Positions 27,153-64,000 of a stretch of DNA of 64,000 bases are shown piece by piece (the stretch's first letter is position 1; each line of letters begins with the position of its first letter). Under the pieces are notes generated by a model. That model had not been told where the DNA came from and searched no databases. It saw nothing but the letters and a program-made list of their open reading frames with translations. This DNA comes from Ginglymostoma cirratum. Its lineage: Eukaryota. A program made the translations under genes and the position numbers. The stretch is from NCBI GenBank assembly GCA_024137785.1, contig JAHRHZ010000046.1:31286320-31350319 (forward strand). Reading direction: 5' to 3'.

Positions 27153-27512
27153 TTGAATCTTTGTTTAATGAAGCTTTATGGTGAAACTGAATGCGCTTTG
27201 CATGAAAGCAGAATTATTTATGACACAGACCTCTTTATTTCGTTGATGGCCTTTAACATTATGTAATAAAAGCTTCTATTGTGAATAGCCTCAGATATTA
27301 TTTTGATGATTGCTACTTTTAATCCTTTCCACAAAGATACCAGGTTGTTCACATTAAACTCAGATTTAAGTTTAAAAAAAGTAAAAAGTTGTTAGAATGC
27401 AAAACTGTATAGCCAGTATCATTTTGACAGGAACCCAAAACAAAAGTCATATTTCCCATTAACTCTTTAAAAGTTCACTACAGCAGTAGTAGTTAACACA
27501 TACAGCCCAGAT

Positions 27513-28142
27513 ATAACAAGCATGGGGCTGGATGAACACAGCAGGGTCAAGCAGCATCATAGGAGCAGGAAAACTTGACGTTTCGGGCCTAAACCCTTNN
27601 NNNNNNNNNNNNNNNNNNNNNNNNNNNNNNNNNNNNNNNNNNNNNNNNNNNNNNNNNNNNNNNNNNNNNNNNNNNNNNNNNNNNNNNNNNNNNNNNNNNN
27701 NNNNNNNNNNNNNNNNNNNNNNNNNNNNNNNNNNNNNNNNNNNNNNNNNNNNNNNNNNNNNNNNNNNNNNNNNNNNNNNNNNNNNNNNNNNNNNNNNNNN
27801 NNNNNNNNNNNNNNNNNNNNNNNNNNNNNNNNNNNNNNNNNNNNNNNNNNNNNNNNNNNNNNNNNNNNNNNNNNNNNNNNNNNNNNNNNNNNNNNNNNNN
27901 NNNNNNNNNNNNNNNNNNNNNNNNNNNNNNNNNNNNNNNNNNNNNNNNNNNNNNNNNNNNNNNNNNNNNNNNNNNNNNNNNNNNNNNNNNNNNNNNNNCG
28001 GGCCTAAACCCTTCATCAGAAAAGGGTTTAGGCCCGAAACGTCAAGTTTTCCTGCTCCTATGATGCTGCTTGACCTGCTGTGTTCATCCAGCCCCATGCT
28101 TGTTATCTCAGATTCCCCAGCATCTGCAGTACCTTTTATCTC
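27513..28142. mobile_element. Young hammerhead fold-back element (family A, same variant as the PLE at 36791); contains a 400-N gap
   Basis: Inverted arms 27513-27598 and 28023-28106. TSD-like cagcccagatataa at 27503-27516 and 28160-28173. Confidence 0.9.
27599..27998. other. Assembly gap (400 N)
   Basis: N run. Confidence 1.
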
Positions 28143-28829
28143 TGATACAATTTTTACCCCAGCCCAGATATAATACAGTTTTTTACTTTCAGTAGATGAG
28201 ATTCTGGCAGTCCAGAAACACTATTGGATAGGAGAACTGAAATCCGCTGTAAACGTAATTTCGCCTTCCACCAGCGCAGCAAACCTGTCTGTTTTCCAAC
28301 GAGGTTCAAACTGAGTTGTTACACAGTTACCATTACAGCTGCTATCAGGAAATCCTGCTGACCGCACAAGATATTCATTGTCTGCCCTTATTTCTTCTCT
28401 GTATGAATTGAATTATTAACTTGCATCTCCAGCTCCAAAAAATTAGTTTGATTCTATACACACTTACATTGTGATATTACTCATAAAGAACTAGGATCTA
28501 ATTGTTATGAGGACATACATCCAAGGTCCTGCAGACAATGGTGCAGTCTAGTCAGAGACCAAGGAACAATGCCACAGTCTCCCAGCCACTTGGAGAACCG
28601 TAAGAAATACAATTAACGAACATCAGCCTTTTAAGCCTAAAAGTGTAATTATTTCTGAGAACTAGAAAACATGACATGGCACAATAAGTGTCTGTGAGTA
28701 AATAAAACTGTTTTCCATACTTAATTTTATATGAGATTGAGAAAACGCAACACAAATTGTTGCTGGAGAGGGAAAACTCTGAGTGAATCATGTCAAAACA
28801 AAATGATTGCTTCAGGCCGTGATGAATTC

Positions 28830-29310
28830 AGAAGTTTATGATACCCTAGAGTCATTTCAGAAGTTTGAAAAAATGTGTAGATTAACAGGCATGTTTTTTA
28901 AAGACACTAAAGAAGAAGAAAGGGCCAACTAAATTGCTTAGCGGGCATATTCAGAAAGGGTTTTAGAAAATAAATAGCTGGCAATTGAGTGAGGATGACA
29001 GCAAAAACCAAAACAAAACATCTTTTGAAGAAAACTTAGCACATTTCTCCAGCCAAAGTTGTCATCAGATCCAGTGATATGAATTTCAAAGCCTGAAACA
29101 AGAATCAGGTGAGCCTGATGACAATTTCTTATCACGATTGAAAAATATACCAAGAGATTGCAAATTCAGAATACAAATAAAAGGCTGACAGATCAGTTCA
29201 TTTAGAACTCGGCACACCTTGAAGTATAAAAGGATTCTAATGGAATGAAAAAACTCTCAATATTGTAGGCTATAGGCACTGTCAGAGCATTTGAAGCCAT
29301 ACAAATTAGC
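28830..29310 (+). mobile_element. Gypsy-type gag relic
   Basis: EFQSLKQESGEPDDNFLSRLKNIPRDCKF...RLTDQFI resembles the retrotransposon gag QxxGExxxxFxxRL motif; contains stops and frameshifts. Confidence 0.65.
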
Positions 29311-30163
29311 GTGAAGATTACCCAAACAACGAACCTTCAGTTAGGTCAACAGAAGTGCAGCAGGGGAAAGGCATCCAGTGAATAGGCAACAGAGGAATGC
29401 ACACATGCTCATCAAAGTCATTCAGAGGTCCAGGGCAAGTACAGACAAATACAAAGGAGGGCTATTGGGCTAAAATGGGGCCCATTGCCAAAAGGGAATT
29501 GGGTAGTCAAGTCTGGTAGGGGAAAGCAAAGACATGTGCTGAGATGGGAACAAAGATGGTTACAGTGGGAAGATTCAAGACATAAAAGGGGTGTACATAA
29601 ATGTATTGGAAAGCAAGGCATGCTACAGGAAGGGGATTGTTTGGCAGTGACCACCACTACTACAGTCCATTTGCAATAGGTAGGCCCAAACTGCTATTAG
29701 GGAGGAAGTTCCAGAATCTTGCACAAGTGGCAATGATGAATGGTGACAAATTTCTGAGTCAGAAGGGTTGGTGGCCTGCGAGGAAACTCGTAGATGGTGG
29801 TGGAATGTAAAACATTTACTGGTCGTCATGCCAGTGAAACTTATCAAGATAGAATGTAAACTTCAGCCCATTGATTTATACAGGCTTTTTATTAAAAGAA
29901 AGATAGATGTTATATCGATATATTCTTCATAATGGGTTGAGAACTATTTGTTATGAACTGGTACAACTGGGGTGCCACATTTATTGCTACACTGGAGGCA
30001 GATACGAAGCAACAATGAATCAGTTATCCAGCATTGGGGGCAGCAGCAAGACATACAGTCAATGAAATACAATATTCTGAGTCTAAAAGAGTGATTATTT
30101 CAAATTTCTGAGAACTGGAAGACATAATGTGTGTATGCGTTGCACATGACCATAAATTCACTA

Positions 30164-30332
30164 CAGGTAATCCCCAGGTTGTGAACAGTTGCTTGCAAGT
30201 CATTTGTCAGCAACTTGGAACACCAGGCAACACAATATAAAACAACCATTTGTTAAGTACAGGAAATGTTTAATATCTTTAAGATGTCATTCCTACTCAC
30301 AAGTCAGACATTCATGAAGCAGGGACCCCCTG
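30164..30332. mobile_element. Tc1/mariner (Tigger/pogo-type) MITE
   Basis: TA|CAGGTAATCCCC ... AGGGACCCCCTG|TA: TA duplication with imperfect CAGG..TCCC terminal inverted repeats. Confidence 0.6.
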
Positions 30333-31090
30333 TAACTATTTCAAACACCTATCAACAGAAACGTGCAAAGGTAAATTCACAAGAGCTCAAACAACTAATG
30401 CCCATGATTTAATTATTATTTTACACATATTTCAACTAACCTTTGTATTATTTTAATTATAAAATATTAAGTCACCTCAAAATAACCCTCAGCTCCATGA
30501 CTGGCAAGGATTGCGGGAATATTTTTGTGCAATAATTTATTTTTAATGAGTTCTACATCACACAGTGAAATGTCAAACCCATGCTATTGATATTTTTCTT
30601 TGTTTTAACTTTAAATATGTACATTTTAAAATCAGTCAGAAATAAAACCAGAAACTTTCCACAGCTTTGCAGCCAATTATAAAAGCTCTATGATTTTAAG
30701 ACGTCCAAGCTGAACACAAAGCCTCTTTTAAGGCAAAGCTAATTTATCTAAATATAGGTAGTAATGCCCCTCCCTCCAATTATATCAACATATTTTGAAG
30801 AGAAAAAAACATTTTTTGCAAGTTCAGATGAGAAAGACACTATTCTTGCACAAGATCAGTATGGTTCACGTGGAAAACAAATTGCACAACGTAAATCCCT
30901 TATGCTGGTCTAAACAATTTTCCTAGCTCCTATTGATCTTTTTCCAGGGTCACTTTATAGCCTTAAGCATTTTCTTGAAGTGTTCTTCTATTCCTATGGA
31001 ACAACTAAATGAAAACTCAACGAAAACTACCTGCCTAATTAATGAAGGATAATATGCACTATTTTATAGCTTTTTAAAAATATTTTGCTA

Positions 31091-31562
31091 AAAAGAGACA
31101 CATAAATTCAAAGTCTTTCACATCATCTTATCAGGACAGACAGGCAAGAAGCCGAAGTGTGAAATCAAACAATTTATACAACATGACGAGAGTGTACTTT
31201 GGTTGGACAACAGTCAGCACAGAAATGCAACTGGAGCAGTTAATTGTGAATATTGGTTTGCTGAAAAAGCTCAGCACCCTCTCCTCATGCTATATAAATT
31301 GGTGTTCCCTTTCTAAGGTTTCCTTCTTAAATATCAGATAAAAACCGAAAGTACTGTGGATGCTGTAAATCAGGAACAAAAACTAAGCTGCTGGAAAAGC
31401 TCAGCAGGTTTGGCAGCATCTGTGAAGGAAAAAACAGAGTTAACATTTCGGGTCCGGTGACCCTTCCTCAGAACTGCTGAGCTTTTTCAGTAACTTTGTT
31501 TTTGTTCTTAAATATCAGTCCTGATGACCAAAGATAAAAATGCTTTGACTAGTGTCGCATTT
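31091..31562. mobile_element. Older fold-back element (family D) with outward-facing hammerhead-like motifs, interrupted by the 31338-31507 insertion
   Basis: tcaggacaga...aatttatacaacatgacgagagtgtact is inverted relative to agcaccctctcctcatgctatataaatt...cagtcctgatga. Both sides read gtcctgat(a/g)a....(g/a)aaa..ctttga. Confidence 0.6.
31338..31507 (-). mobile_element. Family B hammerhead element (full minus arm plus short inverted arm) with 14-bp TSD
   Basis: Minus strand AGUU-CUGAGGA-A-GGGUC-ACCG-GACCC-GAAA-UGUU-AACU. TSD ttcttaaatatcag at 31324-31337 and 31505-31518. Confidence 0.92.
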
Positions 31563-33192
31563 TGACAAAGCTTAGACTGTCTATTGCCAAGAATTATTTT
31601 TATACTTGAAAAAGGAGTATTGTGGAGAATTTTAAATCAACACTAAACTCAAGGCTCTGATCAATATTTTAATCAGTATTTGTGACACTGTGGGGAGACA
31701 ATCTCAACTAGAACACCAGAAAGCCTCTCCAATGAAACAAAAGGACACACATACAACATATTCATTCACGTTACATCCCCTTCTTTTGTACACCAATCAT
31801 ATTGCACTACATCATACTACATGTTCATTTATTTGCAGATTTAAGAGGTATAGCAATGGTCTTGATCAACTGCAGTTTATTCACATATACATGTAACAGG
31901 GATAGCTGTGGTATGCAGGTAACATCTGCTATTGCGAGGTAACAGCACATTTGTTCTTTAAGAGCTTTGTTTCTCCCAGCATCTTTATTTTATGTTGGCA
32001 TCTACTATATGATTTACATTGGAAGTCTCTGTTTCTAACTGCCTGGTTTCATATTTGATCCTTTCAATGCTATCAACATACTTGCATTGTTCCGACTTCA
32101 AGGATCCATGCATTTCCCATTCTTCAATTGGAATACTTACATCTAAAGGAGGGAATCGTGTGGGGGAGATGTGTTCATGATAACATTCTAAATAGCCTCT
32201 CCAGCGCATATAAATTAATATATCTGGACGTTCTAAATATTATACACAAACAGTCACTATCGCTCTCACTTGCTTTCCTGTATGATTTAAGTCCTGCCCT
32301 CGGTGTTCCAAAACCTTGGATGCAGTTTTTCACCATTAACTTTTGATCAAGTAGAAGGATAATCAGTCATGTCCATACAATTCAGTCACCAAAATAAATG
32401 CAGGAGTTTCAGATCACGTCAATGGGATAACTTCATCGATACATCAACAGCTGCTGCCCTCTTTGCTTTATAATGAAATATTTAACACAGAATTCAGTGT
32501 TTACCTTTTGGTTGTGTTGTCACAAACACTGAAGCGTGCACAAAATAACTGTTATACTGTAATTAAAATATATAGCCTGCACCAAGATAAATCTTTGAGA
32601 CACATCCCTACCTACTACATAAATTCATTCAACAAAATTGAAGCTTCTGTGACCCATGTCAAGCAGCGATGAGCAGCTCAAAACAGTGGCAGTTCAGATC
32701 TCCCTAAGAAGGATACGACTATATCACATAATAAATAAATTGTTGTTTCGATAGCATTAAGATGCTGAATGCCATCCTGCAATTGATCTTTAATGTGCAA
32801 CAATTTAGACATGCTCCTTTATGAGAGAAACCCTACAAAAATGGAATTTTAAAGCAACTCTAGCCAGATTAAATGTGTAACATGTGTACAATTTAGACAG
32901 CCTAGCTTTGCAAAACAAATCTTCCCGAAGAGTGACAAGAACAATTCAACCTTTGCATAAAAATATTCAAAAGCAATGTTTCTCAGGTTGAAATGATGTC
33001 TCTCAACTGCAGCATTTTTGCCCTGATTGGTAATCCTGAAAGCTTCTTCACACAAAGTCTGGACATATTGCTGCATTTTCATTGCTACAGCAAAACAGAT
33101 TTAACATCATGTCAATGCAAAACTGTATTCAAAATGCTAGCCAGCTCAAACTCAGATGCAACAAAACATCCACTTGACTTACCATGTCATGA

Positions 33193-33327
33193 TGTGGAGG
33201 TGCCGATGTTGGACTGGGGCGGACAAGGTCAGAAATCACACAACACCAGGTTATAGTCCAATGGGTGTATTTGAAATTTCAAACATATTTGTTGGACTAT
33301 AACCTGGTGTCGTGTGATTTCTGACCT
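33193..33327. mobile_element. Fold-back element (family C), no hammerhead retained, 14-bp TSD
   Basis: aggtcagaaatcacacaacaccaggttatagtccaa (33226-33261) is inverted at 33292-33327. TSD ttaccatgtcatga at 33179-33192 and 33328-33341. Confidence 0.85.
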
Positions 33328-33384
33328 TTACCATGTCATGACATCGAATTACAAAGAACCATCTGATGAACACCCAATATGGAA

Positions 33385-36165: not shown

Positions 36166-36790
36166 CTGATGTAGTGAGGTAGGTAGGTAAAGAGGGATTG
36201 GCAGTAAAAGGTGTGAAGATGGCTATCAGAATCCCCTCCACATTTCTCAATGTTGGGTGCCTTGATCAGGCTAGGGACTGGCTTTGAAGAAGGAGTCGCC
36301 TTCTTCCTCTATCTTCACTTCAGGAGATGACACAAGCAGGTTATCCAGGTTACTTGTCACATTCTCGGTATGGTAATGGGTCAACCTATTCCTCAAGCCA
36401 GGTGAATACTAGTGCCGGTAGGATGAGGGGCTTTAATGGTCATTTAGTGTCCACAAAGCTATCAAGTGGTGGCAGGGTCAACAACAGACTTTCTTGCTAC
36501 AGATTTAATCACGGTAGAGGCAGGAAGGAGACGGAAAGCTCACCTGTCACTCTCCCACCCAATTACATGGGTCCTGGACTCCAAGTATGCCACTAGAGGG
36601 GGCTGAAGATTCCAACTATCTGTTTCTCTCTGAAATATTTTCCTTCTGGATTGATGAAGCTAAACTTTGTTTTTGTGGTTGCACAATTCAGACATAGACT
36701 ATCAACATGTGAGGTTTTGTAGTTTGGCAAGGGAAGCAATGACCAATAAGTAATGGAATATCACTGTCCAATAAATAATGGAATAGCAGT

Positions 36791-38773
36791 GATAACAAGC
36801 ATGGGGCTGGATGAACACAACAGGCCAAGCAGCATCACAGGAGCAGGAAAACTTGACGTTTCGGGCCTAGACCCTTCATCAGAAATGGGGGAGGGGAAGA
36901 GGGTTCTGAAATAAATAGGGAGAGAGGGGGAGGCGGATAGAGGATGGATAGAGGAGAGGATAGGTGGAGAGGAGGCAGACAAGTCGAAGAGGCGGGGATG
37001 GAGCCAGTAAAGGTGAGTGTAGGTAGGGGGGTAGGGAGGAGATAGGTCAGTCCAGGGAGGACGGACAGGTCAAGGGGGCAGGATGATGTTAGGAGATGGG
37101 GGTGTGGCTTGAGGTAAGAGGAAAAACAGGTTAGGAGGTGGAGATGAGCTAGGCTGGTTTTGGGATGCGGTTGGGGGAGGGGAGATTTTGAAACTTGTGA
37201 GATCCACATTGATGCCATTGGGCTGCAGGGTTCCCAGGCTGAATATGATTTGCTGTTCCTGCAGCCTTCGGGTGGCATCACTGTGGCATTGCAGGAGGCC
37301 CAGGATGGACATGTCATCTGAGGAATGGGAGGGGGAGTTGAAATGGTTCGCGACTGGGAGGTGCAGTTGTTTGTTGCGAACTGAGCACAGGTGGTCTGCA
37401 AAGCGGTCCCCAAGCCTCCGCTTAGTTTCCCCGATGTAGAGGAAGCCACAACGGGTACAGCGGATGCAGTATACCACATCTGCCTGATGTGGAAAGTCTT
37501 CTTGGGGCCTGGGATTGGGGTGAGGGAGGTGGTGTGGGGGCAGGTGTAGCACTTCCTGCGGTTGCAGGGAAAAGTGCCGGGTGTGGTGGGGCTGGAGGGG
37601 AGTGTGGAGCGGACAAGGGAGTCGCGGAGGGAGTGGTCCCTCCGGAAAGCAGATAAGGGTGGGGAGGGAAAAATGTCTTTGATGGTGGGGTCTGATTGCA
37701 GATGGCGGAAGTGTTGGAGGATGATGCGTTGGATCCGGAGGTTGGTGGGGTGGTATGTGAGGACGAGGGGGATTCTTTTTTGGTTATTATTGCGGGGACG
37801 GGGCGTAAGGGACGTGTTCCGGGAAATGCGGGAGACACGGTCGAGGGCGTTCTCGACCACTGTCGGGGGCAAGTTGCGGTCCTTGAAGAATGAGGACATT
37901 TGAGATGTATGGGAGTGGAATGTCTCATCCTGGGAGCAGATGCGGCGGAGGTGAAGGAATTGGGAATAGGGGATAGCATTTTTGCAGGAAGGTGGGTGGG
38001 AGGAGGTGTATTCCAGGTAGCTGTGGGAGTCAGTGGGCTTGAAATGGACATCGGTTTCTCGGTGGTTACCTGAGATGGAGACAGAGGTCCAGGAAGGAGA
38101 GAGAAGTGTTGGAGATGGTCCAGGTGAACTTCAGGTTGGGGTGGAAGGTGTTGGTGAAGTGGATGAACTGTTCGAGCTCCTTGTGGGAGCACGAGGCGGC
38201 GCCGATGCAGTCATCAATGTAACGGAGGAAGAGGTGGGGTTTAGGGCCAGTGTAGGTACGGAAGAGGGATTGTTCCACGTAACCTACAAAGAGGCAGGCA
38301 TAGCTTGGGCCCATGTGGGTACCCATGGCCACCCCTTTTGTCTGTAGGAAGTGGGAGAAATTGAAAGAGAAGTTGTTGAGGGTGAGGACGAGTTCGGCTA
38401 AGTGGATGAGGGTGTCAGTGGAGGGGGATTGGTCAGTTCTGCAGGACAGGAAGAAGCGGAGGGCCTTCAGGCCATCAGCATGGGGAATACAGGTGTATAG
38501 GGACTGGATGTCCATCGTAAAAATGAGGTGTTGGGGACCGGGGAATTGGAAGTTCTGGAGGAGGTGGAGGGCGTGGGTGGTGTCACGGACGTAGGTAGGG
38601 AGTTCCTGGACCAAGGGGGTGAAAATGGAGTCTAGGTAGGTGGAGATAAGTTCGGTGGGGCAGGAGCAGGCGGAGACAATGGGTCGACCAGGGCATTCAG
38701 GTTTGTGGATTTTGGGGAGGAGATAGAAGCGGGCGGTGCGGGGTTGGGGAACGATGAGGTTGGAGGCAGTGGG
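36791..38773 (-). mobile_element. Penelope-like retroelement (probably Neptune-type), 5'-truncated and frameshifted; RT + GIY-YIG endonuclease + 3' hammerhead module
   Basis: RT motifs FYLLPKIHKP..GRPIVS, TMDIQSLYT, QTKGVAMGTHMGPSYA, FLRYIDD. Linker PLVLTYHP and PCNRRKCYTC. GIY-YIG domain VVYCIRCTRCGFLYIGETKRRLGDRFADH...HFN...LGTLQPNGIN. Flanked by tggaatagcagt (36779-36790) / tgggatagcagt (38774-38785), a 12-bp TSD with 1 mismatch. Confidence 0.95.
36852..36885 (-). ncRNA. Minimal type I hammerhead ribozyme motif in the PLE 3' region
   Basis: UUU-CUGAUGA-A-GGGUCUAGGCCC-GAAA-C-GUC^AAG: intact catalytic boxes, stem II GGGU/GCCC, palindromic ACGU in place of stem III, short stem I UUU/AAG. Confidence 0.8.
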
Positions 38774-41109
38774 TGGGATAGCAGTATTGCCTTATCCTAT
38801 CAAGTTTCTGATCATATCAGATTGCACTTAATTTATCTTCATCACCAGATTGGGAGTAGGTGGATTTGCAGGTTTCTTCAATCAGAAAAAAAGGCACTCC
38901 ACCCACATTGCATATATTTAATCGCTCGCTGCATTCTCTTCACCTGTAATCAAAGTTACCAAACAACTTGTAGAAAATCTACTTCATATCTGCAGAAATA
39001 TTTGACACAAGATTGAAACTTTTTATTTGGCTGTACTTTTCCCATAATAAAAAGGACAAAAGAGCAACTTACAGCACATGTATGTACACTTGTATTAAAT
39101 ACTTCTTGGTTACCTCATTATTCACTAAAATTAAGTGTTCTAACATTTCAGAAACCCTTCAGCATCTGTGTCGAAAACAAACTGGGGAGTTGCCGTGTGT
39201 GACAAAGTGATGAAAAAAAAATTCAACAAGGTTTTTACATTAATTGTCACATGCCCACGATATAAGCATATGGCAATTACATAGTTACAATTTAGGGTTG
39301 AGAGAAACAGATTATTTTGGGTAGTTTATATCTTCATACATTTGGTTGCAGCAACATCACAGTTCCATCTGGTTCAGACAGGCAACTTTTCATCTTTTCT
39401 TTTGCCCGTCTGAAAGCTGGGTGGCCCCAGGAAATATCAATATATCTATAATTTTTAACAAAGAAAACACACTTTACATCACCTCCAATATATATCAGTA
39501 AGAGTGATTGCTGGGTTTCAAACATTGAAAATTTTGAACAATTGCCAGCTTTAATAATTCAAAGGTCCCAAGAGTAGGAATTGATCAAACCGTGCTTTAA
39601 AAAAAACTCACTAACAATTAACCAAAATTAATTTGACTGTTGATTTGAACTGAAGAATGTCACCAAAAATTCTTCAAAAAATAAACTCAATTTTGCATGC
39701 TCATTTTTTGCAGTCTTTAAGTATCTGTTCCATTTTAAAAGGGAGGAATAATGATGTAATCCTCCATACATACCAACCTTTGTATCCAGCTGTCAGCACT
39801 GCAGGATAAGTGAATGGATTCCATAGCACTCTGTGGTGCTGTTTCATCAGTCAGCTCAGCTAAGGTGTAACACATTGCTGTTTATCTTTTGCGCCTGATT
39901 CAAGAGTTGCAGAAGTCAGAAACCCAAAGAGGCAACAAAGGCCGATGATTATCATTGCACTTTGAGCACAGCGACAACTCAAAGTCTCAGGCAGATCTAA
40001 TGGAAAAGTTGTTTTAAAAAAAAGTCAAAATTAAACTGAAAATGTTGCCTCTGTCATTGAGAATAGACGTAATACTGTTACCACAATGTGTTGCATAGAA
40101 ACTACATCAAACCCTCCGAAGTGACTGACTGAAATCTATAAATTAATTGGAACCTTTCAAGGAAATGTATTCTACCACAGCTATTTCCTCCCATAACCAC
40201 AGTCACACAATTACAGGGCTTTCTAAGACACAACTGTTCTAATTTTTTTCTCATTTACTTGACTGAAGCTACTAGGTCCATACTGAGAGTAACATTAATG
40301 AACCCTTGTCACTCTCCTGAAATCAATTGTCCACATGCATGAACTGAAGCAGTGAAGAGTCAGCTTTGTGAAGGCTTCACAAGCAAAGTACAATCTTGCC
40401 TTCACCTAATATCCATTGATTCATCCTCCTAGCTACTGATCAACAATGTACCCAATTTCCAAAAAAAGGCTCTTCTGTGAAAAGAAAATCATTTATCCAT
40501 GCAACTCACTGTGATTTCAATTAAATGAACGTAATTTTCACCCCCAAAAGTAGGTTGCTTTGGGTTGCATGCAAAATAAAGACAAAAAAAATCTGAAAAT
40601 CCCAAAATTGATCAAACCAGAGAATAAAAGGCTGGATCTGGACAAGAAGAAACAGCAGTGTTTCCTCCAGGACCAACAAGTTTTCTTGTGCACACCCCCA
40701 CCCCAACCCCGCTCATCACCATCATTTGCCAAATTCCCACTACCTCAAATGCAGACTCTCCAAATTCCCCTTCCCACCAACAGAATGTAACTCACCCAGT
40801 CTACTCCCTCTCCCTATAATCTTCCCTTTCCCAGATCACAGAATCTTCCCAATGTCATCCTCCTTTCTGCCTCTGCCTCAAACCTTAGCTGTGGCACAGT
40901 GCTGAGGCCAGCAGCCTCTCAGTATATGCTTCTCATCCAGTGCTTCTACCCTGCTCCCTTTCCATTTCTCCATAAATAAGATTAATAATCTGTGAATTTT
41001 ACAGGACAGCAAATGCTGAGACTGAATTTAAAACCTGTATCATCCAGAGGAATATACTAGTAATCTACTAATTGCACCATGCAGTTATGTCTTGAATACA
41101 GCATCTAAC

Positions 41110-43616
41110 ACAAGTACTGTATATGAGGGACTTGGTTAGGTGGATAGGAAGGACTTATATTAATTAGTGGAGATGGCTATAACCAGAGGAGGTATTGATT
41201 TCAAGTAATTGGTGGAAGGTAAGTTGAAAACATTAAACTGTTGACCCATCTTTGATGAGTTAATGGCATGGATTGACCATGGAGGTATGATATTGTTGCC
41301 ATCATAGAAATATGGTTAAGGGAACGGCTGGACTGGCAACCGAACATTCGGGGTTTAGGAACTATAGGCAAGACAGAGGAGTATGTAAAAAAGAGTGTTG
41401 ATGTAGCATTACTAATTACGGAGTCAATTACTGCAATAAGGAGAGATGATATCTTGGAAGGGTCCTCAAATGAGGCTTTGTGGGTAAAACGTAGGAACTC
41501 GAAGGAGCAGCCACTCTACTGGGAGTGTACTATAGGCCCCCAAAGAGTCAAAGGGAAATAGAGGACCAAAGATGTAGACAGTTAAAAAAGATATGTATGT
41601 TAGAGTAATAATCAGGTAACTATACTAGGAGATTTCAACTTTCCCAACCTAAGTTGGGATAGTCTTAGGGTTAAGGGTTTAGAGGGGGAAACATTTCTTG
41701 AGGATATCCAGGGGATTTTTTTTTGTATGAGTATGTAGAAGACCCTACAAGGGACAGCACACTGCTGGATCTGGTTCTGTGGAAAGAAGAAAAACATGTG
41801 TACGATGTGGCAGTGGGGGAACATTTTAGCGATAGCGACTACAATTTGGTACGGTTTAAATTTATTCTGGGCAAGGAAAAAGATGGCCTGCAAAAGATGG
41901 CTTTAGATTGGAGGAAGGCAAACATAAAGAAGGTTCCAGCCTTTTAATTCCCCTCTGGCTACCGGGGAAGAGCCAGAGGACTGGAGAATGGCTAATGTGG
42001 TTCCACTTTTCAGCAAGGGTGGTAGAGATGAATTGGGAAACTACAGACCGCTAAGTCTCACATCCGTGACAGGGAAACTTTTGGACAAAATTCTGAAGGA
42101 GCAAATTAATACCCACTTGGAAAGACATGGGCTAATTAGGGATGATCGACATGGTTTTGTCAGAGGGAGGTCATGCCTAACAAATTTGTTAGAATTTTTT
42201 GAAAATGTGATCAAGTGTGTGGATGAGAAAAGTTCAGTTGATGTAGCTTATGAGGATTTTAGCAAGACTTTTGACATGATCCTACTTGGAAAACTGATTA
42301 AGAAGGTTAAAGCACCTGGAACTGAGGAGAACTTGGCAAGTTGGATCAGAAACTGGCTTCGTAATAGGACACAATAATGGTAGAAGGTTGTTTGAGTGAC
42401 TGGAGGCCAGTGTCCAGCAGTGTACCACAAGGATCAGTGCTGGGATTCCTATTATTTGTCATGTACATGACAGATACAGTTGTAAATGCGGGAGGAATGT
42501 CAAGCAAATTTTCAGACAAGATCAAGATTGGTCGAGTGGATAACAGCAAAGAAGATGGTTGTAGGTTGCAGGAAGATATAGCTGGATTTATCAGATGGGC
42601 AGACCAGTGGCAGATGGTATTTAACCCTGATGAGTTGGAAGAAGAAACAAGATGAAGGAATATTTAAAGAATGGCAGGACACTAGGTAGCTCAGAAGAAC
42701 AGAAGGATGTTGGGGTAATTATTCACAAATCCCTGAAGTCGGCAGAGCATGTGAATAGGATAGTTAAGGCCGCATAAGGAACACTTGTTTTCATCAGTCG
42801 TGGCATAGTGTATAACAGCAAGGAGGTAACGTTGGAGTTGTACAGAATGTTAGTCAGGCCACAGCTGGAGTACTGTATGCAGTGCTGGTCACCTAATTAC
42901 AGGAAGGATGTGATAGCACTGGAGGGGGTACAGAGGAGGTTCACCAGGATGTTGCCTGGGATGGAGAAATTGAGCTATAAGGAGAGATTAGAGGGGCTTG
43001 GATTGTTTTCTTTAGAGCAGAGAAGACAGAAAAGGGACATGATTGACATGTATAAGATTATGAGGGGTATGGACAGGGTGAATGGAGAGCAGCTGTTCCC
43101 CTTAGTTGAGAGGTCAATCACGAGGGGGCATAGCTTTAAGGTGGTTGGCAGAAGGATTACAAAGGACATGAGGAAAGACCTTTTCACCCAGAGGGCTGTG
43201 GATGTTGGGTATGAAATAACTCCACAGGGGCCAGGATCCAATCACCAAGTCACCCGTTATTTACACATGGACAGGGATCCAGCTCCCTCAGGGCCAGCTC
43301 TCAGAGTGAACAGAACCTCTGACACTCCTGTTTATAGCTGTCAGCGAGGGGTCCCTGATTGGACCAGATCAACAGCCCCAGTCAAGGAACTCATAATTTA
43401 TGAGGTCCACCTGGCTGTCCTTGTTACAATCACTACAGGGAGTTTATTTGGAAATCTTCAAATCATTTCAAAGGAACAGAGATCTACACTTCCAATGCTG
43501 TAACTTGAAAGGTGCTATTCACAAACATCAGATTGGCAGCTAGCTTATTCAGACAGCGCAAACATCATGGGCTGAATGGCCCCTTTCTGTGCTGTAACTT
43601 TTCCATCATTTTATTT
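41110..43616 (+). mobile_element. CR1 LINE with APE endonuclease and RT remnants, internally deleted and frameshifted
   Basis: EN: YDIVAIIEIW, GVYYRPP, ILGDFNFP, PTRDSTLLDLVL, HFSDSDY. RT: WRMANVVPLFSKG..GNYRPLSLTSVTGK, HGFVRGRSCLTNL, DFSKTFD, VPQGSVLG, LVRPQLEYC..WSP, LEGVQRRFTRMLPGM. 3' UTR gggctgaatggcccctttctgtgctgta. Confidence 0.95.
43203..43437 (-). mobile_element. Solo LTR (~235 bp) inserted in the CR1
   Basis: TGT...ACA termini. Minus strand has CCAATCAGG, CTATAAA and an AATAAC polyA-like signal. Flanks tgga/ggga (4 bp, 1 mismatch). It interrupts the CR1 frame after FTQRAV. Confidence 0.75.
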
Positions 43617-54856: not shown

Positions 54857-54879
54857 GCTGAGAATCGCAGGCAGCAGCG

Positions 54880-55985: not shown

Positions 55986-56548
55986 GGAACACATCTGGAA
56001 TAAGAACTGGGCTCTGGAGTGTGTCCGGGCAGAGAACGCTCTCAGTCTGCCAACATCATGTCAACTGTGTCTAGCAGTGGCTCAGCTTCGTTTAGATCGA
56101 TAACTGTATCAGCTACAGGGGACCGCCTGGGTGTCAGTCATACCGTCACTGCACCAGCACTGTAGTGGCAAGCCTTGAAGTTAAATCATATCCATGTTTC
56201 TTAAGGGCGGAAAATCGAGCAAATAAAAACTGAACTCTATTCGCCAGTGTTGCAGATAGCAGTGAGTTCAATTCGCTGCTTCAAGTGGCGTGGATACAAC
56301 AATCCCAGTGTGGAACTATACATCCCGGTTTATCCAGTTTACCGAGAACCTCATGTAACTAACTCTGTATCTTTCCCCGCCCCGATACCGCAGGAAAGAA
56401 TGTGATACTTTGAATCGTGGCCCATTACAGGCCAATGCCAGATGGGTTGTAACCGTTTAGGTTCACTTTGCACAGGCCAGTGTACACGGTCTAAATCAGA
56501 TAACTTCAGAGGCAAGGGTCTATCCATGACAAACATAAAGATTTATTT

Positions 56549-56720
56549 GTTAACGTTTCGGGTCCGGTGACCCTTCCTCACAACAGGTTCTGAGAAAGGG
56601 TCACCAGACCCGAAACGTTAACTCTGTTTTTCCTTCCAGGTGCTGCCAGACCTGCTGAGCTTTTCCAGCAACTTCTGTTTTTGTTCCTGATTCACTGCAT
56701 CCGCTGTTCTTTCGGTTTGT
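56549..56720. mobile_element. Family B hammerhead fold-back element with 14-bp TSD
   Basis: gttaacgtttcgggtccggtgacccttcctca is inverted relative to tgagaaagggtcaccagacccgaaacgttaac. TSD ataaagatttattt (56535-56548) / ataaagatttgttt (56721-56734). Confidence 0.92.
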
Positions 56721-57210
56721 ATAAAGATTTGTTTTTTGTTTTATTATTCCAGCCAATATCTTGCGTCCAACAATATATATCTGCTTTTGATTACAGGATG
56801 GCATTAACGAGTTCAAGTAAAATAAAGTATAAAACATCTATTTTAAGCTTTTAAATGCACTTACAGATGGGAGAACTGATGATGTCTGTTGGAGTGAAAC
56901 CTTCAGACTATCAAATCAATAAACCAAGAGATCGAATTACATGCAGTGTGACAGCCAGAATGAACAGCCCGGCATTTTGTACCCTGCAACAGGAGACAGA
57001 AAGCTGACCGTTAAATGTTCTAATCAGCTTGAAGTCCTGCAATCTGCTTTTGTCTGGAATACTCATTATAAACATCAGCAAGGAGGTCAAATCATGTGCT
57101 GAGAATGGTTCTTGCACTTTTGCAATGTTATCCACTCTGTCAAATCCAGTGATCACACGGGAGGGGTGCTTTTTGAACGTCTGGCAGTGCCATTTTTACA
57201 CTCGCAGTTG

Positions 57211-57231: not shown

Positions 57232-57330
57232 CCAAAAAGCGATAGATGAAATTGACAGCCTTACATAGAAAGGTTCGACTGGTAGAATGGAAATATCAGA
57301 CCAGTTCGATAAAGTTGCAAGCACAACAGT

Positions 57331-57483: not shown

Positions 57484-57494
57484 CACGTTGCATA

Positions 57495-57950
57495 AAAAAA
57501 GCTTTGCATTTATTCACCTTTCAAAACTTCACAATCAACCAAATACCTAAAAGGATCATGAATGGAAACCAATTTGCAAAAAAAAAATCCCTTAAGCAGC
57601 AGTGAAATGAACAACCAGATAATTTGTTTCAATAATATTGGTTGAGGGAGAAAAATTAGAAAATATTGGCCTGGGATTGTTATAATAATTTTACAAGTTT
57701 AATTGTACAACTCTTTAAAAAAATAATTTCAAGGATTTTGGCATTATGGGCAAGATCAATTTTTTTTTTCTTTGTTGCCTGTGAAAAGGTAGGGTGGACC
57801 GTTTAATGAACTACTGCAAGGAGCCCCACTCTTTTTTAAACCGGATGACAATTGTTTAACATATCATCCAAGAAAAATCACCTTTGATAGTGCAGCACTA
57901 TCTTGGTCCTGCACTCCTAGTCTAAATTATCTACCCAGCTCTTTGAAAGA
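57495..57950 (-). mobile_element. Deu-domain SINE, decayed; a related 3' fragment lies at ~11965-12120
   Basis: accagataatttgtttc..attggttgaggga, gtttaacatatcatccaag..cacctttgatagtgcagcact; similar to 46030-46230. Confidence 0.55.
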
Positions 57951-58149
57951 TAAACCCAATTACACATTGTGTTCACTAATATATCAAAGCCTGTTTGAGT
58001 TAATGCTTACTCTATTATGAAAATAATCTGAGAAGATTGTATTGTTAAAACCTTTGTATCTATACATAGATTATTCTATCAGGGCTCCTTCTCTCCTTGG
58101 TAACTTACAGGGACAGGTACCCAGGATATCTATTGGCCCATCAGCATGG

Positions 58150-59120
58150 CATAGAGTCATCATGCATTTAAGGATCTACCAGCACTGACGTATGCACCAT
58201 CTTACGTTAATGAGCTTCTGGCATTGATCAAAAGGTCAACAACATTATACCTTTCATAATTTTCATCACGTAGCAGAAAAGGTTCATATTGCCCAAGAAA
58301 CTGCAGAGTTAGGAGAGGTGTGCAAACATACGAGAACAACCAAAGAGGGGGAGGCTATGGAGATTGCCAGGGGATTTTTAGGATCAAGTTCAGGAAGGCA
58401 AAGTGGAAAGAGTATTAAAGTATTGCAAGCTGGAGATGCAGTGCCTCTCCTTGTCTGACAAAACGATGAAGACTCTGCTGCATATGAAATCTCAGCACTC
58501 CAAGGTTAGTTCTCGAGGTCTTTCTTCTGACTTGGACATTGAGAGACATAATACTATCGTAACACAGGGACAAGTGCTAGAAACAGACAAACACCTCAAG
58601 GAACCACCACGTCTTACAAGTATGAGAACAATACAAGAAGTAAGAGGCAAGAGGCAAAGGGTAGGCCCCCTCAGAGATGGAGGACAGCACTCCCATGCTC
58701 AGCTGACCCATTTGCAGGGTCACAGGAAGCATAGTAAAAGAGACAAGAAATGTGTTCCATGTTCCCATATAGCAGGAATTCCCAGCGATAGGTCATGGGC
58801 TGAGAATAGAGGAATCCATTCAGCTTATAGACATTATATTGACTCATGATTTTTAACACACTCTCCATTGAGAAACTGTCCAAGTTCATGGAGACCTATG
58901 TGCAATAGCACTCCAAGTGGATACAGGAGCAAAGCAGTGATCCACACAGAATGCTGCCATATGTTACAACATTGACTGATCAGTAAGACAGATGGCACAG
59001 AGATGCTTAGAGCTGCAGTTACAGCAGAGCTGGTGATCCCCTCCAGTTAGCCTAGAGCTCCAGCAGGTGTTGAGGGAACTGGCAATAGGGAAAAACCTAC
59101 TTGGTTTCATTCTCAGTAAT
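58150..59120 (+). mobile_element. Possible Harbinger Myb/SANT-like accessory ORF relic
   Basis: Decayed coding-like stretch (EKVHIAQETAELG...EAMEIA) converging on the transposase relic, as expected for PIF/Harbinger. Weak recognition. Confidence 0.35.
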
Positions 59121-59199
59121 CTACCTGTCCCGGTGCGTCCGATCATGATGGTATTGGTGGAGTGACTGCTGCACAGTCTTCGTAGAGAAAAGTCCTATC

Positions 59200-59830
59200 T
59201 TCACATTGAAAATGCTCTCTATTGTGTTTTGCAGCACTACCACCACGCTAAATGGGATATATTTACACTGTGGCAACAAAAAGTCAGAGACCAAGGATTT
59301 TGTGGCAATTAAGTCACCTCCTGTCTCCCCAATGTCTGTTGAACACCTCCAAGACAGAGTGAAAGAATACTTTCTTCTTATTTGTGTGTGTACTGCTCTA
59401 TCAACACTCAAGAAGCTCAGTACCATCTAAGACAAAGCATTTCACTTAAATAGCAGGTGATCTACCACCTTCAATTCTTACTTTGTTCACTACTTATACA
59501 CAATGGCAGCTATCTTTTCATCAACAAAATACAATATAGCAAATCACTGAAGTCCCTTCAACAACACCTTCCAAACCCATGGCCTTTACCATGTAGAAGG
59601 AATGGGGCAGTTGATGAAGGCAGTAGAAAACCATTACCTTAAAATACCTCTCAGAGTCACACAACCTCTGACTTGAAACTATATCACCATTCCATTAATG
59701 TTGCTGGTTCAAAATCCTAGAACTTCCTTCCTGAAGCACTTTGAGTGTCCACACCCCAAGGACTGTAGCAGCTCAGAAACGCGGCTCCCACAAACCCCTC
59801 AGGTGTAATTAAGGGTAGATGATAAGCACT
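59200..59830 (+). mobile_element. Old CR1/L2-group LINE 3' fragment; related pieces at ~23930-24170 (+) and ~29680-29810 (-)
   Basis: ...TLKKLSTI*DKA C-terminal remnant. The 3' segment ttcaacaacaccttccaaaccc...gttgctggttcaaaatcctagaac recurs at 23945-24100. Confidence 0.6.
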
Positions 59831-60459
59831 AGATCACATCATATTAACAAGTAAGAAAAAGCCATCCAGAGTGCAAGCCAAAGGATGACGTATTCAGCGA
59901 GGATAATGATGGGAGTATAAGCCCACAGGAACACTGTTGACCTCTGAAAGGCCATTTGTACAGCAGAGATTGCTCTATATTGACACAAATACAGTAGGCT
60001 CTCAACCTGACAACACTACCATTGCCACGGTGGCAGACTGCCCTCAGAATCTCAGGTGCTAACAGAAATAGAAGAGGCTGTAAGCAGATTACCACATAGA
60101 ATTAGCCGAGAGCAGAGATTATTACATCAGGCTGAGACTTTTTAAGGTACTTGTGTACTTTTTTCTGTTCCTTCACACAATGTAAATGACATCACATGAT
60201 GTCAGATGGATGAGCTTTCACACTTTAATGGCAATACCGCAAAAGAAGGGAAGTGGGGAAGAGGAGCAACAATGCTTAAAGAGGGTCAGTGAAACCACTG
60301 AACTAACATTTTTCATCCAGTGGCTGTAAGAATGGATCTATTCCAGGCTGTGTTTTCAAAGAAAATGCTCTCACAGACAGCTCAAAGTGAATTCCAGACC
60401 ATGCAGTCCTCCAGATTTCTAAGAGATCAACTGAAATGCTCCTGTATCGGATGATCCTT

Positions 60460-60800
60460 GACGTTGACAGCATCTTGAAGAGATCCTCAAGTCTTCTGCT
60501 GGCCTTTGCCATCATCATCCGTAGTTAAGACACATCTGATATTTTGCATCTTCCTTGTCCACTTCCATGCCCTGGTCCTCCACTTTCTCCACTGTGCTGC
60601 TGCCTTCTGAAGTCTCACTCTCTTCAAGGTCGGCATATTTCTGAGGGGCCATATTATGGGGAATACAGTAGCCCACCAAAATGTCAGGAAGTAGTTCAGG
60701 AGAGTACTGCGGGATCATCACCAGAGTGGTCCAGGCATTGGCACTGAAGCCTCAGAAGGCCAATGGCTAACTCAATGGTAGTCTTTGCGAGAAAATGGCC
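60460..60800 (-). mobile_element. PIF/Harbinger transposase C-terminal relic
   Basis: Joining shifted frames gives AIGLLRLQCQCLDHSG..PQYSPE..DILVGYCIPHNMA plus an acidic tail, matching the HARBI1-like IGLLKxRFRCLDxSGGxLQYSP..CCxLHN motif. Confidence 0.75.
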
Positions 60801-61278
60801 TCAGTTATAGTTCTATGGCCCTTTTTCAGGGATATAAATAGGTAAGTAACTGTTGCATCATGCGTTAGCTTTTGTCCCTTAGAATCCATCCACAGAATCA
60901 CGGGGTAGGATGAAGAGATACAACTGTATGGACAGGTGAAGGATGAAAGAGTCAAAGCAACTGCCTGGGAAGTGATACTGTACAACTCATGCACCCTAAC
61001 AAACTCCGAAACTTGCCCTCTGCAAGCTCTGAACAAGTTCTCTAATTTACTTATAAAAGTTGCAGAATCGGGTGGATTACTGGGCCCTAATTTTCCCCAT
61101 CCAGCTTAAATTTGGAAGAGGCAGGAATGGTGATTAAAAAAAAAACAGGCATCCCGACTGGCAGCTTTTATGGTCCCACTCACCTCTGTTTGCTTCCTTC
61201 GTGGGATCTAATAATCCTGTCCAGTCTTCAAGGTATGAACTTGATCTTCTATGGTGACTGATATTTGACTGATTTTGA

Positions 61279-61500
61279 TAAAGAGGATAGCAAGAACTGC
61301 AGATGCTGGAGTCAGAGTCGATACAGTGTGGAGCCGGAGGAACACAGCAGGTCAGACAGCATCAGAGGAGCAAGAGAGTTGACGTTTTGGGCCTAAACCC
61401 TTCATCAGGTCCCGATGAAAGGTCTAAGCCTTAAACATCAACTCTTCTAGTCCTCTAATGCTGCCTGACCTGCTGTGTTCCTCCAGCTCCACATTGTATC
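61279..61500. mobile_element. Hammerhead fold-back element (family A-related) with 12-bp TSD
   Basis: Inverted arms centred on cccttcatcaggtcccgatgaaagg. TSD gactgattttga at 61267-61278 and 61501-61512. Confidence 0.9.
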
Positions 61501-64000
61501 GACTGATTTTGACGTTAGCTGTTGATATAGCACGTTGACAAACAATAAATCTCTGCAATCTACAGTTTATTTTGCAAAATGCAAGGGAAAATCTGCTCTT
61601 TAAGTGGATAATTGATATTGAAAGCCTTGTTAAAGCAGACCTGGACTCTCTTTGTCATTTGGTGGGACATATCTGAAATTCTATCACTTTATCAGTACAA
61701 ACCCTTTCATTTCCCTGGAGGAGAACTAGATTTTCCATTGGGTAGAAATGTAAGAGACAGCTAGTATGCATGCTATGACAATCTGTTTAGGACCATTATG
61801 AAAAAGATACATAATTATAATATTCCTCTATTGCAAGAATATTTTTGACTAATTGATACTTCTGTGAAATACAGGAAGTACGTATTCCTTTGTTTTCATT
61901 GGTAACTGTGCAAAACTTATACTAGAAAAAGTATACTCTGACACACTGAAATACTATGAACATTTAACTTCAGCATTAGCCAATATATTCTCATTCCTTT
62001 AACTTTATACATCATATAACTTTGTCAATAGACATGATTAAAACAATTCAGGATAATGAAATATGAAAAATCAACTCAGAATAACATACAGATGTCACAT
62101 ACCAAAACAAAATCTGGTGAGAAATTCTTGCTGCTTAAAATAAAATGTATAAAATCCTCGGTTATACAGTGAAGTGCATTAATATAACAAAATTCAATCA
62201 AAAGTGAACCATTAATAATTAAGTTGAAAGAATAAAAGGTCACCTCATATTCTCAATAGTTACACCATTTCCCTCCCAATACTTCAGTTGTGGGATTCAA
62301 ATCAGTCAAAACTAATATTGCTGGCTCAAGAGATTCTCTGTTTTACATAAGATAAAAGATCCAACATGATTTTAACCAAATTTAGATTGAAGGTAGATCT
62401 CAGGAAATTCATTACAGTAAATGATTTCGCTTTAGCCACAAGAACACTTAATTAATTGATTTTGTTGCATCCTTCCTGTAAGGTTCATCTTCTGAAATGC
62501 ACAGTAAAAATAACACAAAGGTCACTGTAACAGGAGCTTTGGTAATGATGGGCGTCAGCTGGGTAAATCAATTCTCGTCTGGGGTCATGTTTAAAAATGA
62601 TTAAAATACGTGGTAAATAACTTCATCTTCGTTTCCTTACCACAGAAAAGCATGGTACCCTGTAGATACTGTAGCAAAATCCAGCAATGAAAAGGTATTC
62701 GTAACAAAAAAAAACACATCATGTTTATTATCAGATAAAATAAAGAGATTCCAACAGACAAAAGATTGTTACAAAGAGCAAGATTTCTCCTGATGTATTG
62801 GTAGATCATTTGATTGAAAACAGTATTCTCTCTCTCTGTCTCTTAAGAGTTGTCAATTTACCAATTCAATCTGGTTACAGATCCCCAGTATGCTCCACTG
62901 GGAATCTATATCACTGACTATAAAAGGTCTCAACTAATCCTAATTTTCTTTTCAGTTTTACATAAAATCGTCCTTTACCAAGCCATCCAAACATTGTTAA
63001 AAGAAGACACGAATGATCTTGTGGGTCCACTGATATGCTTTCATGTCAGCGAGGGTTATAATCCACCACCTTGTTCATTACAGGCTAGTGTTTTATTAGT
63101 AATGAATACAACACACAGCATGGACAGTAAAAGACATTGGGCACTGGACTGTCAGCCCTGTTAGTCTAGGTTAATTCTTAAAATGTCAACACTGGGTTTG
63201 AACTCTAATACTTTAAATGAATATTCTCTAAAATAAAATCTAATTGATCTTCTCTGGCAGTCCTCATGAGCATTCCTGGTTTCAAGATATCTTGTTAAGT
63301 TTAGTTGTGATGATGGAGCTGTGTTAAATTGGCCTGTCCCTTTAAAGCCACCTCCTTTGTACAAAGTGAATCAAACTGACCAGCTTTGATGTCAGTTTGG
63401 GGTTGAAAGAAGTTGTTGAGAAAAGTGCCTGTAGATTTGCAGCTGTTTGCAAATGCCAATTTTTACCCTTGAGGAAGTTAGGTTAATAATGTCATACAAA
63501 CCATTGAGAAATGACTGACATTCTTTATCATTCTCAAAGACGTTTTTCTCAAATTCATTTTGCATCTGTAAGTAGTTGCGACACTTTGAAATGTGATGCC
63601 TTACATGAAGAATAACATGGAAAGTTTTTAGTTTCAAGATCAACCAAATCTTGCATAGCCCATTGATTCATTCATACACAACAGGTCAATCTTACAGTTA
63701 GTGTTTAATATTATGCTAGCAGTTATGATCTCCATCTATGGTTGTTAAAAATAATTTAATATTAACCTTTTGAACTGTACCCATATCCCTTGAAAAATCA
63801 ACTATGTTCATTCAGCATCCATTATGGATGAACACCACCACATGCGGCGCTCCCAATCCAAAAGTAACAAATTAGCAGTTCTCCTGATTCCAATGGAAAT
63901 TTGATGTCAGTTTGTTATTATCCATTGTGCTCAATGCAAAGACAAAACCTGCCCTAGACCCCTGATTTTACTGAGATAGGATTTTCAAGTTGGGGAAGGA

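Follow-up and report, generated by a model that had tools for sequence, protein, structure and literature searches.

Penelope-like pLTR hairpins with one long and one short end per insertion in a window of the Ginglymostoma cirratum genome, and similar hairpins in metagenome contigs

The stretch of DNA analysed here, referred to as the window, comprises 64,000 nucleotides of Ginglymostoma cirratum (contig JAHRHZ010000046.1, positions 31,286,320 to 31,350,319) and holds insertions made of two inverted arms, one of which reaches further out than the other. How does a single insertion come to have two different ends? Inverted pLTRs with an optional “tail” of 30–40 bp are described for EN+ Penelope-like elements (PLEs) in the available parts of PMC8557442 and PMC3846280, and the origin of the inverted repeats and the one-sided tail is disputed between them, the former invoking endonuclease resolution and the latter self-priming. 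The arm asymmetry in the window is real, but for the most part it has been described before, being this tail with a similar offset, as the original prediction had said; neither the tail nor its position at one end is new. As a difference from those descriptions, insofar as their text is available, the present copies are mostly solo pLTR hairpins, the one-tail rule is counted, and offsets of 50–100 nt occur too.

The copies are listed in Table 1, where the ranges of offset reflect the choice of where overlapping bases are assigned. Most of them are solo pLTR hairpins of 140–250 nt without an ORF, and they show the inverted 5'-truncated copy, the TSD and the optional 30–40 bp tail at one end by which EN+ PLEs are recognized. 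A minimal hammerhead core with stem II is present in families A and B (found by motif at 36858–36882 and 31445–31471), like the minimal hammerhead ribozymes of PLE pLTRs, many of them dispersed outside full elements, in the accessible portion of PMC4209133, where head-to-head pairs and the tail are untreated. The Rfam search gave no hammerhead match; its weak miRNA matches fell on the 21k and 33k copies. The 33k copy (family C) is without a hammerhead core inside and matches neither family A nor family B; judged from its anatomy, which agrees with theirs, it would be PLE-derived. Assembly gaps (100 N and 400 N) hide the centres of the 21k and 27k copies, and an assembly artefact was rejected as the source of the arm asymmetry because four clear copies are gap-free.

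Table 1. Penelope-like copies and related features in the window (positions in the window; overlap, bases shared by TSD and element at the short junction).
Feature	Span	Strand	Arms or parts	TSD	Extension	Offset	Overlap (nt)
Family A hairpin at window edge	1..131	.	right arm in view, ending at short site				
Old family B hairpin	8850..9066	.	left long, right short	decayed		~31 profile positions	
Old family B hairpin	12734..12981	.	left long, right short	probable, 12734-12747/12968-12981 (12/14)		~31 profile positions	
21k copy, family A hairpin	21012..21367	.	short 21025-21215 (-), gapped at 21071-21170; long 21223-21352 (+)	21012-21026/21353-21367 (15 nt)	21320-21352	33-37 nt	2 (2 also at long junction)
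Predicted RNA stem, 21k copy	21271..21334	+	5' strand 21271-21277; 3' strand 21328-21334, in tail				
Single-armed family B copy	25669..25770	+	end near short site	uncertain			
27k copy, family A hairpin	27503..28173	.	short 27513-27598 (-); 400-N gap; long 28022-28159 (+)	27503-27516/28160-28173 (14 nt)		53-57 nt	4 (27513-27516)
Element template past usual long end, 27k copy	28143..28159	+	17 nt				
31k copy, family B hairpin	31324..31518	.	long 31338-31474 (-); short, 5'-truncated, about 31469-31507 (+)	31324-31337/31505-31518 (14 nt)	31338-31373	36-39 nt	3 (31505-31507)
33k copy, family C hairpin	33179..33341	.	long 33193-33276 (-); short 33277-33328 (+)	33179-33192/33328-33341 (14 nt)	33193-33224	32-33 nt	1
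Long copy, autonomous-type PLE	36779..38785	-	element 36791-38773, 5'-truncated, frameshifted; RT, CX4CxxC linker, GIY-YIG; hammerhead core 36858-36882	36779-36790/38774-38785 (11/12 match)			0
56k copy, family B hairpin	56535..56734	.	very short 56549-56584 (-), minimal hammerhead motif alone; long 56587-56720 (+)	56535-56548/56721-56734 (13/14 match)		98-100 nt	0 (>=2 at long junction)
61k copy, family A variant hairpin	61267..61512	.	long 61279-61409 (-); short 61411-61504 (+)	61267-61278/61501-61512 (12 nt; 14 nt once one CpG-type change is permitted)	61279-61315	37-41 nt	4 (61501-61504)

The long copy identifies the kind of element involved. On the minus strand it gives RVT_1 (E 3e-7) followed by GIY-YIG (E 1e-5), and the translation of 37070–37783 has two cysteines in the interval from GIY to YIG and histidines further on, the CCHH pattern by which EN+ PLEs are defined in the available text of PMC8557442. 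It is an EN+ Penelope-like element, with RT and, at its C terminus, GIY-YIG, and between RT and EN lies a linker of the CX2-5CxxC form typical of Neptune/Nematis, namely CX4CxxC, which is also found in the whale shark homologue P0082. Named homologues come from sharks, a ray, corals, molluscs and a crinoid. The 3' end of this copy is a family A arm; the copy has no inverted arm and ends, as had been predicted, at the short-arm register (36791). An un-inverted, TSD-flanked copy thus ends at the short site, which is therefore taken to be a primary start site.

Two classes of ends, one of each per insertion, had been predicted, and the counts bear this out. Not one of the eight two-armed window copies having both ends in view is symmetric, and intact TSDs adjoin both ends of all clear copies. 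The claim of a constant asymmetry of 32–37 nt holds for four of the six clear TSD-flanked hairpins (32–41 nt; the extensions of the 21k, 31k, 33k and 61k copies, 33, 36, 32 and 37 nt, lie where they had been placed) and fails for the 27k and 56k copies. For the 27k copy an extension of ~36 nt (28107–28142) had been given, but its right TSD starts at 28160 and 28143–28159 is family sequence; the 56k copy had rightly been set apart for its much shorter arm. In public contigs, which cannot pair the ends of an insertion, ends cluster at 28109 and 28142–28144 among the rows listed.

The same pairing is found outside the shark. A generic head-to-head pattern hit at least 117 metagenome loci, from which 64 without a hairpin were dropped, leaving 53; hammerhead cores were thereby selected for, and TSDs (10–18 nt) and tails came unselected. 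Among the matches listed, 28 of the 53 had no TSD at a score of at least 10 and were excluded from counting, 7 of these being clipped close to the arms where the contig ends. None of the other 25 TSD-flanked hairpins among the matches listed is symmetric, and 21 of them have offsets of 27–44 nt (median 34.5). The exceptions are L055 (64–69 nt), L022 (69 nt, weak TSD), L091 (a very short plus a short arm, no long arm) and L109 (chimeric, tail motif on both arms), all four of which were removed for the median. In the largest family, restricted to loci with 200 nt of sequence on both arms, a single arm carries the tail motif in 11 of 13 loci, both arms carry it in one, and in one it went unmatched (among the matches listed). 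The false-positive rate of the TSD caller is 1/110; with looser TSD scores, the metagenome matches listed yield 3 “symmetric” repeats against 34–42 asymmetric ones, two of the three (L106 and L085) lying within the arms and the third (L079) being 7 nt. The rule that an insertion has one long and one short end applies widely.

As to the source of these loci, no PLE ORF was found by tblastn within the 300–500 nt flanks of the 53 hairpins (among the matches listed). The pattern of families A and B had no match in the viral, metagenome and prokaryote collections, and the generic pattern gave 16 viral loci, none with an inverted repeat spanning the match. Comparing the identity of a copy's own arms with that to other copies did not distinguish one RNA from two.

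The original prediction had explained the two ends by internal priming of the short arm through target microhomology and by priming of the long arm at the true 3' end of the RNA. The window junctions favour the first half: short-junction overlaps of the five hairpins at 21k, 27k, 31k, 33k and 61k sum to 14 nt (P 0.0008 against a random-insertion null; P 0.005 when the long copy and the 56k copy are added). The three overlaps cited for it, of 4, 3 and 4 nt, are real, but they are just the three largest, the others being 2, 1, 0 and 0 nt. Outside the window the excess disappears: with L109, L091 and L055 removed, the 22 short junctions among the matches listed overlap by 1.0 nt on average versus 0.77 by chance (P 0.17), and 10 of them have zero overlap, some with filler. 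On the other side, an overlap of 5 nt is reached by 2 of these 22 (against an expected 0.18, P 0.015, among the matches listed), and by eye L026, L035, L051 and L118 show near-matches interrupted by one mismatch. Long junctions overlap as much: the two measurable in the window have 2 and at least 2 nt, the outside ones a lower-bound mean of 1.2 nt (n=13 among the matches listed, hand-compiled with unmeasurable junctions set to 0), and long and short do not differ among the matches listed (Mann-Whitney P 0.65). Moreover, free choice by microhomology would not hold the short ends to one register, and in each family they lie within a few bases of one. A choice of the short site by microhomology is thus not supported. 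Since strict overlap counts underestimate imperfect pairing and the window short junctions exceed chance, target pairing probably tunes the register of the start.

Nor is it supported that the long end is the true 3' end of the RNA. In the 27k copy the template continues for 17 nt past the usual long end, which had been overlooked, and in some outside copies for 3–9 nt (among the matches listed). Summed contig depth over 28147–28158 is 4,600–60,000 in three runs and 26,000–133,000 in a fourth, compared with 9–16 or 0 over unique flank in the same four of the 24 listed runs (one 180-nt arm), and pieces ending at 28149–28153 occur among the contig matches listed for this arm. Searching proteins with a translation of the tail region gave no match, so it is the contig depth on which the 17-nt extension rests. 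In vitro, both start sites are internal in the available text of PMC11167929. The original account is largely refuted, and as a whole it is hardly credible.

If pairing does not place the short site, RNA structure may. A predicted stem of 6–12 bp encloses it in 9 of 12 outside families, where 2.7 are expected (among the matches listed), and the predicted 3' strand lies 6–13 nt after the short site in all four window arms tested; the range was widened from the window's 7–13 after the outside data, and at 7–13 the count is 8 of 12 families (among the matches listed). In the 21k copy the predicted stem, weak for a single copy, has the short start site (about 21317–21319) inside and the long site ~19 nt past it. 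Per copy the stem is weak (p<=0.05 in 2–3 of 20), compensatory change is almost absent, and single-arm folding z-scores are unremarkable (-0.7 to 0.9). By eye, the template printed in the available part of PMC11167929, that of Poseidon from Anolis carolinensis, has a 7-bp stem (+50–56/+94–100) 11–18 nt before the +111–118 start site. The literature covered, with most subscription papers including the 2005–2006 PLE reviews outside its scope, holds no end-pairing count, shark description or mention of the stem; the stem may be a new lead.

We lean, with slightly better than even confidence, to a model in which pLTR RNA is primed by both target nicks, each at one of two internal windows. The hairpins would come from the hammerhead-bearing pLTR end of Neptune/Nematis-type PLEs, inserted head to head and 5'-truncated. 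Both target strands would be nicked by the GIY-YIG endonuclease 12–15 nt apart, as read from the TSDs, and both 3' ends would be extended on pLTR-containing RNA, as the anole Poseidon element does in vitro. Two windows lying ~35 nt from each other within a longer RNA would serve as starts of reverse transcription, and the two nicks of one insertion would use different ones, which is the pattern observed. Protein and RNA structure rather than target pairing may set these start windows, and pairing of 0–5 nt may select the register inside them, as the end classes and overlaps suggest. Most simply, an RT-EN dimer might lie across one pLTR stem, with one active site in the loop and the other 3' of the stem; both cDNAs would stop near the hammerhead and then be joined into a hairpin whose tail sits on a single arm. 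It is possible, although we put it forward tentatively, that PLEs across animals insert by obligately asymmetric double priming, with an RT-EN dimer straddling a conserved pLTR stem and the tail length as its ruler; equally tentatively, both nicks could use one RNA, with one start in the stem loop and the other ~35 nt downstream.

Poseidon is the nearest known system. In the available text of PMC11167929 cutting and extension affect both strands, the tail is bounded by two internal start sites and a dimer is predicted; an upstream hammerhead and AT-rich targets are further likenesses (window TSDs are 69% AT vs 61%). The clade differs, however, since the window element has the CX4CxxC linker and Penelope/Poseidon are without it. 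In the same text the bulk products show no start-site difference between strands, no homology is seen at the start site, whereas the genomic junctions here overlap by 0–5 nt, and the pairing of sites within an insertion is outside the study.

Fold-back synthesis predicts the same long-plus-short pairing, which counts against double priming on two internal start windows. Here the long-site cDNA would snap back near the hammerhead and copy itself, and the other target end would capture the second strand, stalled by structure or protein, at a point ~35 nt short of the first junction. Such self-priming needs no dimer, and the available part of PMC3846280 takes inverted-junction palindromes as its sign; the off-centre junction of the 31k copy fits a cDNA end annealing to itself, and the window short-junction overlap above chance also suits it. 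We nevertheless hold it less likely, though a live rival, because the long copy, un-inverted and with a TSD of its own, stops at the short site, because in vitro the RT of Poseidon starts there (PMC11167929, available text), and because L091 is without a long arm. Four family-1 outside hairpins have a zero-loop centre in common, the left half of which is missing, by eye, from the one longer upstream template among the matches listed, L082, a comparison that fits annealing of two cDNA ends better than snap-back. Quite improbable is a common start site for both arms, with the tail difference made later by endonuclease cutting or hairpin repair: EN-mediated resolution, the reading of the tail in the available text of PMC8557442, would give one tailed end, but in vitro the tail maps to two RT start sites (PMC11167929, available text). 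Intact TSDs abut both ends of clear copies, and later deletion would rarely leave these.

In L1 twin priming both nicks prime, the inversion lies inside one TSD with microhomology at the junction, the inverted and the 3' segments are free of overlap, and poly(A) is present. The hairpins resemble this in the priming of both nicks, the inversion within one TSD and the junction microhomology; an L1-type product was rejected because the two arms overlap, as copies of one segment, and poly(A) is absent. MITEs and cut-and-paste DNA transposons have terminal inverted repeats reaching both ends and a short TSD of fixed length. They were rejected too, as the inverted repeat stops 32–100 nt short of one end and the TSD is 12–15 nt.

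In practice such hairpins could pass for MITEs or microRNA precursors. Two start sites emerged from the only in vitro system, and their coupling was not asked in the available text of PMC11167929. The near-absolute rule of one long and one short end, together with the predicted stem, would make this directly testable with the assay already published and with any shark assembly.

A profile search listed the pieces of hairpin families A, B and C across the window; A and B come from the terminal repeat (pLTR) end of Penelope-like elements (PLEs), and C, judged by its anatomy, may do so too. Six window hairpins carry clear target site duplications (TSDs) of 12–15 nt. Their offsets, that is, the excess of the long arm over the short one or "tail", are compiled in the table. 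Eight two-armed window copies show both of their ends, and all eight are asymmetric. The original prediction of a constant asymmetry of about 32–37 nt had correct coordinates for the other copies, but not for 27k, where the TSD resumes only at 28160. In fact, 28143–28159 is hundreds to thousands of times deeper than the unique flank in four public runs and is thus element template. Public contigs were aligned to 28015–28194 and loose ends were counted; among the best-supported matches listed, ends with long flanks fall at 28142–28144 in 101 contigs of run X1, 71 of X3 and 26 + 49 of X12, and 20 contigs of X12 form a second cluster at 28109. The outer ends of the short and long arms (short site, 28102–28112; long site, 28136–28146) share a near-identical 10-nt context in family A (9/10); families B and C show no obvious counterpart. 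Contigs of three runs also jump back from about 28094 to 28052, with a brief spacer of constant sequence between the two points and depths reaching 900; this suggests that a ~53-nt pLTR-derived unit is repeated in tandem elsewhere in the genome.

Hairpins and neighbouring features in the window and outside it (L numbers, loci from metagenome contigs)
Feature	Coordinates	Offset (nt)	Remark
21k hairpin	21012–21367	33–37	100-N gap at 21071–21170 stands in for ~6 nt
27k hairpin	27503–28173	53–57	27599–28021: same short stretch on either side of 400-N gap; true gap probably negative
31k hairpin	31324–31518	36–39	Left-adjacent 29-nt inverted repeat (83%), 31170–31301, around 19-nt inverted family B piece, 31258–31276
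33k hairpin	33179–33341	32–33	
56k hairpin	56535–56734	98–100	
61k hairpin	61267–61512	37–41	
8.9k old hairpin		~31 (profile)	
12.8k old hairpin		~31 (profile)	
57k copy			Resembles 8.9k and 12.8k; weak
Edge copy	1–131		Cut by window edge
Inverted repeat around old single family B arm	10088–10108 / 10208–10228		21 nt, 95%; may be inverted target duplication or second-arm stub
Separate retroelement	41928–43503		Two + strand RT-bearing frames (RVT_1 E 1e-12); probably LINE remnant
L055			Exception: very short + long arm, as in 56k
L091			Exception: very short + short arm
L022		69	Exception: weak TSD
L109			Exception: chimeric, tail motif on both arms

Outside the window, we searched metagenome contigs for two head-to-head hammerhead cores only, with outer ends unconstrained, and obtained at least 117 loci. 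Fifty-three are real hairpins, in 24 sequence groups; their hosts are presumed to be animal DNA within the assemblies, and a PLE ORF could be linked to none of the 53. The TSD search, which permitted symmetric ends, called TSDs in 25 of them (false calls, 1/110 mismatched flank pairs), all distinct from one another. No TSD-flanked hairpin among the 25 is symmetric, and offsets are 27.5–44 nt in 21 (median 34.5). Were the ends chosen independently, the probability of 0/22 symmetric would be 2e-7; supposing that long/long hairpins failed to assemble, it would be 1e-4. The predicted pairing, one end of each class per insertion, is borne out in both sets. The long arms of L022 and L028 share ~50–55 nt past the short end and may represent a family with a longer tail. 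L036, L067 and L077 carry 160–200 nt of additional self-complementary sequence on one arm, between two hammerhead-bearing arms.

The inner ends of window arms (21215/21223, 31474, 56584/56587, 61409/61411) lie a few bases from the 5' edge of the hammerhead core; arms stop there although the ribozyme cut site is 3' of the core. In X12 the consensus is lost just upstream of the core in 90 contigs (loose ends before 28022). Four independent insertions (L021, L040, L041, L126) are centred, with zero loop, on the same 4-nt palindrome, which lies directly upstream of the hammerhead. The very short arm at 56549–56584 is a minimal hammerhead motif ending 3 nt beyond the predicted cut site; 56k, L055 and L091, with such arms, may form a third start class. 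Minimal hammerheads are described in PMC4209133.

The long copy, a 5'-truncated, frameshifted PLE (36779–38785, minus strand), marks the window as shark-like DNA: over 61% of the query, its RT is 90% identical to a protein from the whale shark, and it is 82% identical to one from a bamboo shark. The family A arm is its 3' end. It is flanked by a 12-nt TSD (11 match), lacks an inverted arm and ends at the short site, with no nucleotides common to TSD and element (overlap 0).

Target microhomology at short junctions, also predicted, stands above chance in the window but not outside it. Overlaps are 2, 4, 3, 1 and 4 nt in five window hairpins and 0 in both 56k and the long copy, versus 0.7–0.9 nt per junction expected for random insertion (P 0.0008 for five, 0.005 for seven). 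Overlap had been visible originally only where the sister arm gives the downstream template; long junctions with template from another copy overlap too (21k, 2 nt; 56k, at least 2). Outside, 22 short junctions average 1.0 nt versus 0.77 expected (P 0.17): 10 have none, two have 5 nt, above expectation (P 0.015), and near matches in L026, L035, L051 and L118 (by eye) are uncounted under the strict rule. Thirteen outside long junctions, hand-entered with unmeasurable values as 0, average 1.2 nt (P 0.65 versus short).

Around the short site, a 5–7 bp helix is predicted in families A and B between the segment upstream and the first half of the tail, and family C has the same predicted arrangement in other sequence. 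It is weak per copy (p<=0.05 in 2–3/20; combined P 0.001–0.003 on non-independent rows) and kept within families, with at most one compensatory change. Where the helix sits is more telling: its 3' strand begins 6–13 nt past the short site in 9/12 outside families, whereas shuffled tails would give 2.7 (P 1e-4). This range was widened by one from the window's 7–13, which 8/12 fit, after the outside data were seen. The Poseidon template printed in PMC11167929, whose Fig. S1 covers the region, has a 7-bp stem whose end lies, by eye, 11–18 nt before the +111–118 start site.

Cuts are staggered by 12–15 nt in the window, and both arms point their RNA-3' ends toward the target. The outer ends fall into two classes, each insertion pairing one with the other; both classes lie within a longer template, with overlaps of 0–5 nt at either. 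We lean towards double priming at two coupled windows. Both target nicks would prime on RNA, whose structure would set two start windows; target pairing would merely tune the register within a window, and a dimer across one stem would give one window to each nick. That the dimer straddles one stem on the same RNA is a more tentative proposal. L1 twin priming and the definitions of MITEs are points of comparison.

Fold-back synthesis yields the identical long and short pairing and deserves some weight as a less probable route, but the short site is also where the un-inverted, TSD-flanked long copy ends, and the zero-loop centre common to four outside copies fits two annealing cDNA ends. Later trimming is an improbable source of the tail difference. 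The mechanism originally proposed, a microhomology-primed short arm and a long arm begun at the true RNA 3' end, is half wrong and, as a whole, very improbable: long ends vary by 3–9 nt between copies within some outside subfamilies, so the template continues beyond them. Coupled double priming remains our preferred reading.

The asymmetry itself is real and largely known, and these hairpins add members to an already recognised class. PMC3846280 describes palindromic junctions and an inverted pLTR that carries a 31-bp tail. PMC11167929 shows that both strands are cut and extended, that the tail lies between two internal start sites and that the start site lacks homology, and it predicts a dimer. 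PMC8969392 restates the anatomy. A literature search, with older subscription reviews outside its scope, found neither a published tally of how the ends pair nor any reference to the stem. The additions are modest: a one-of-each rule backed by counts, and the stem. Together they give a testable prediction.
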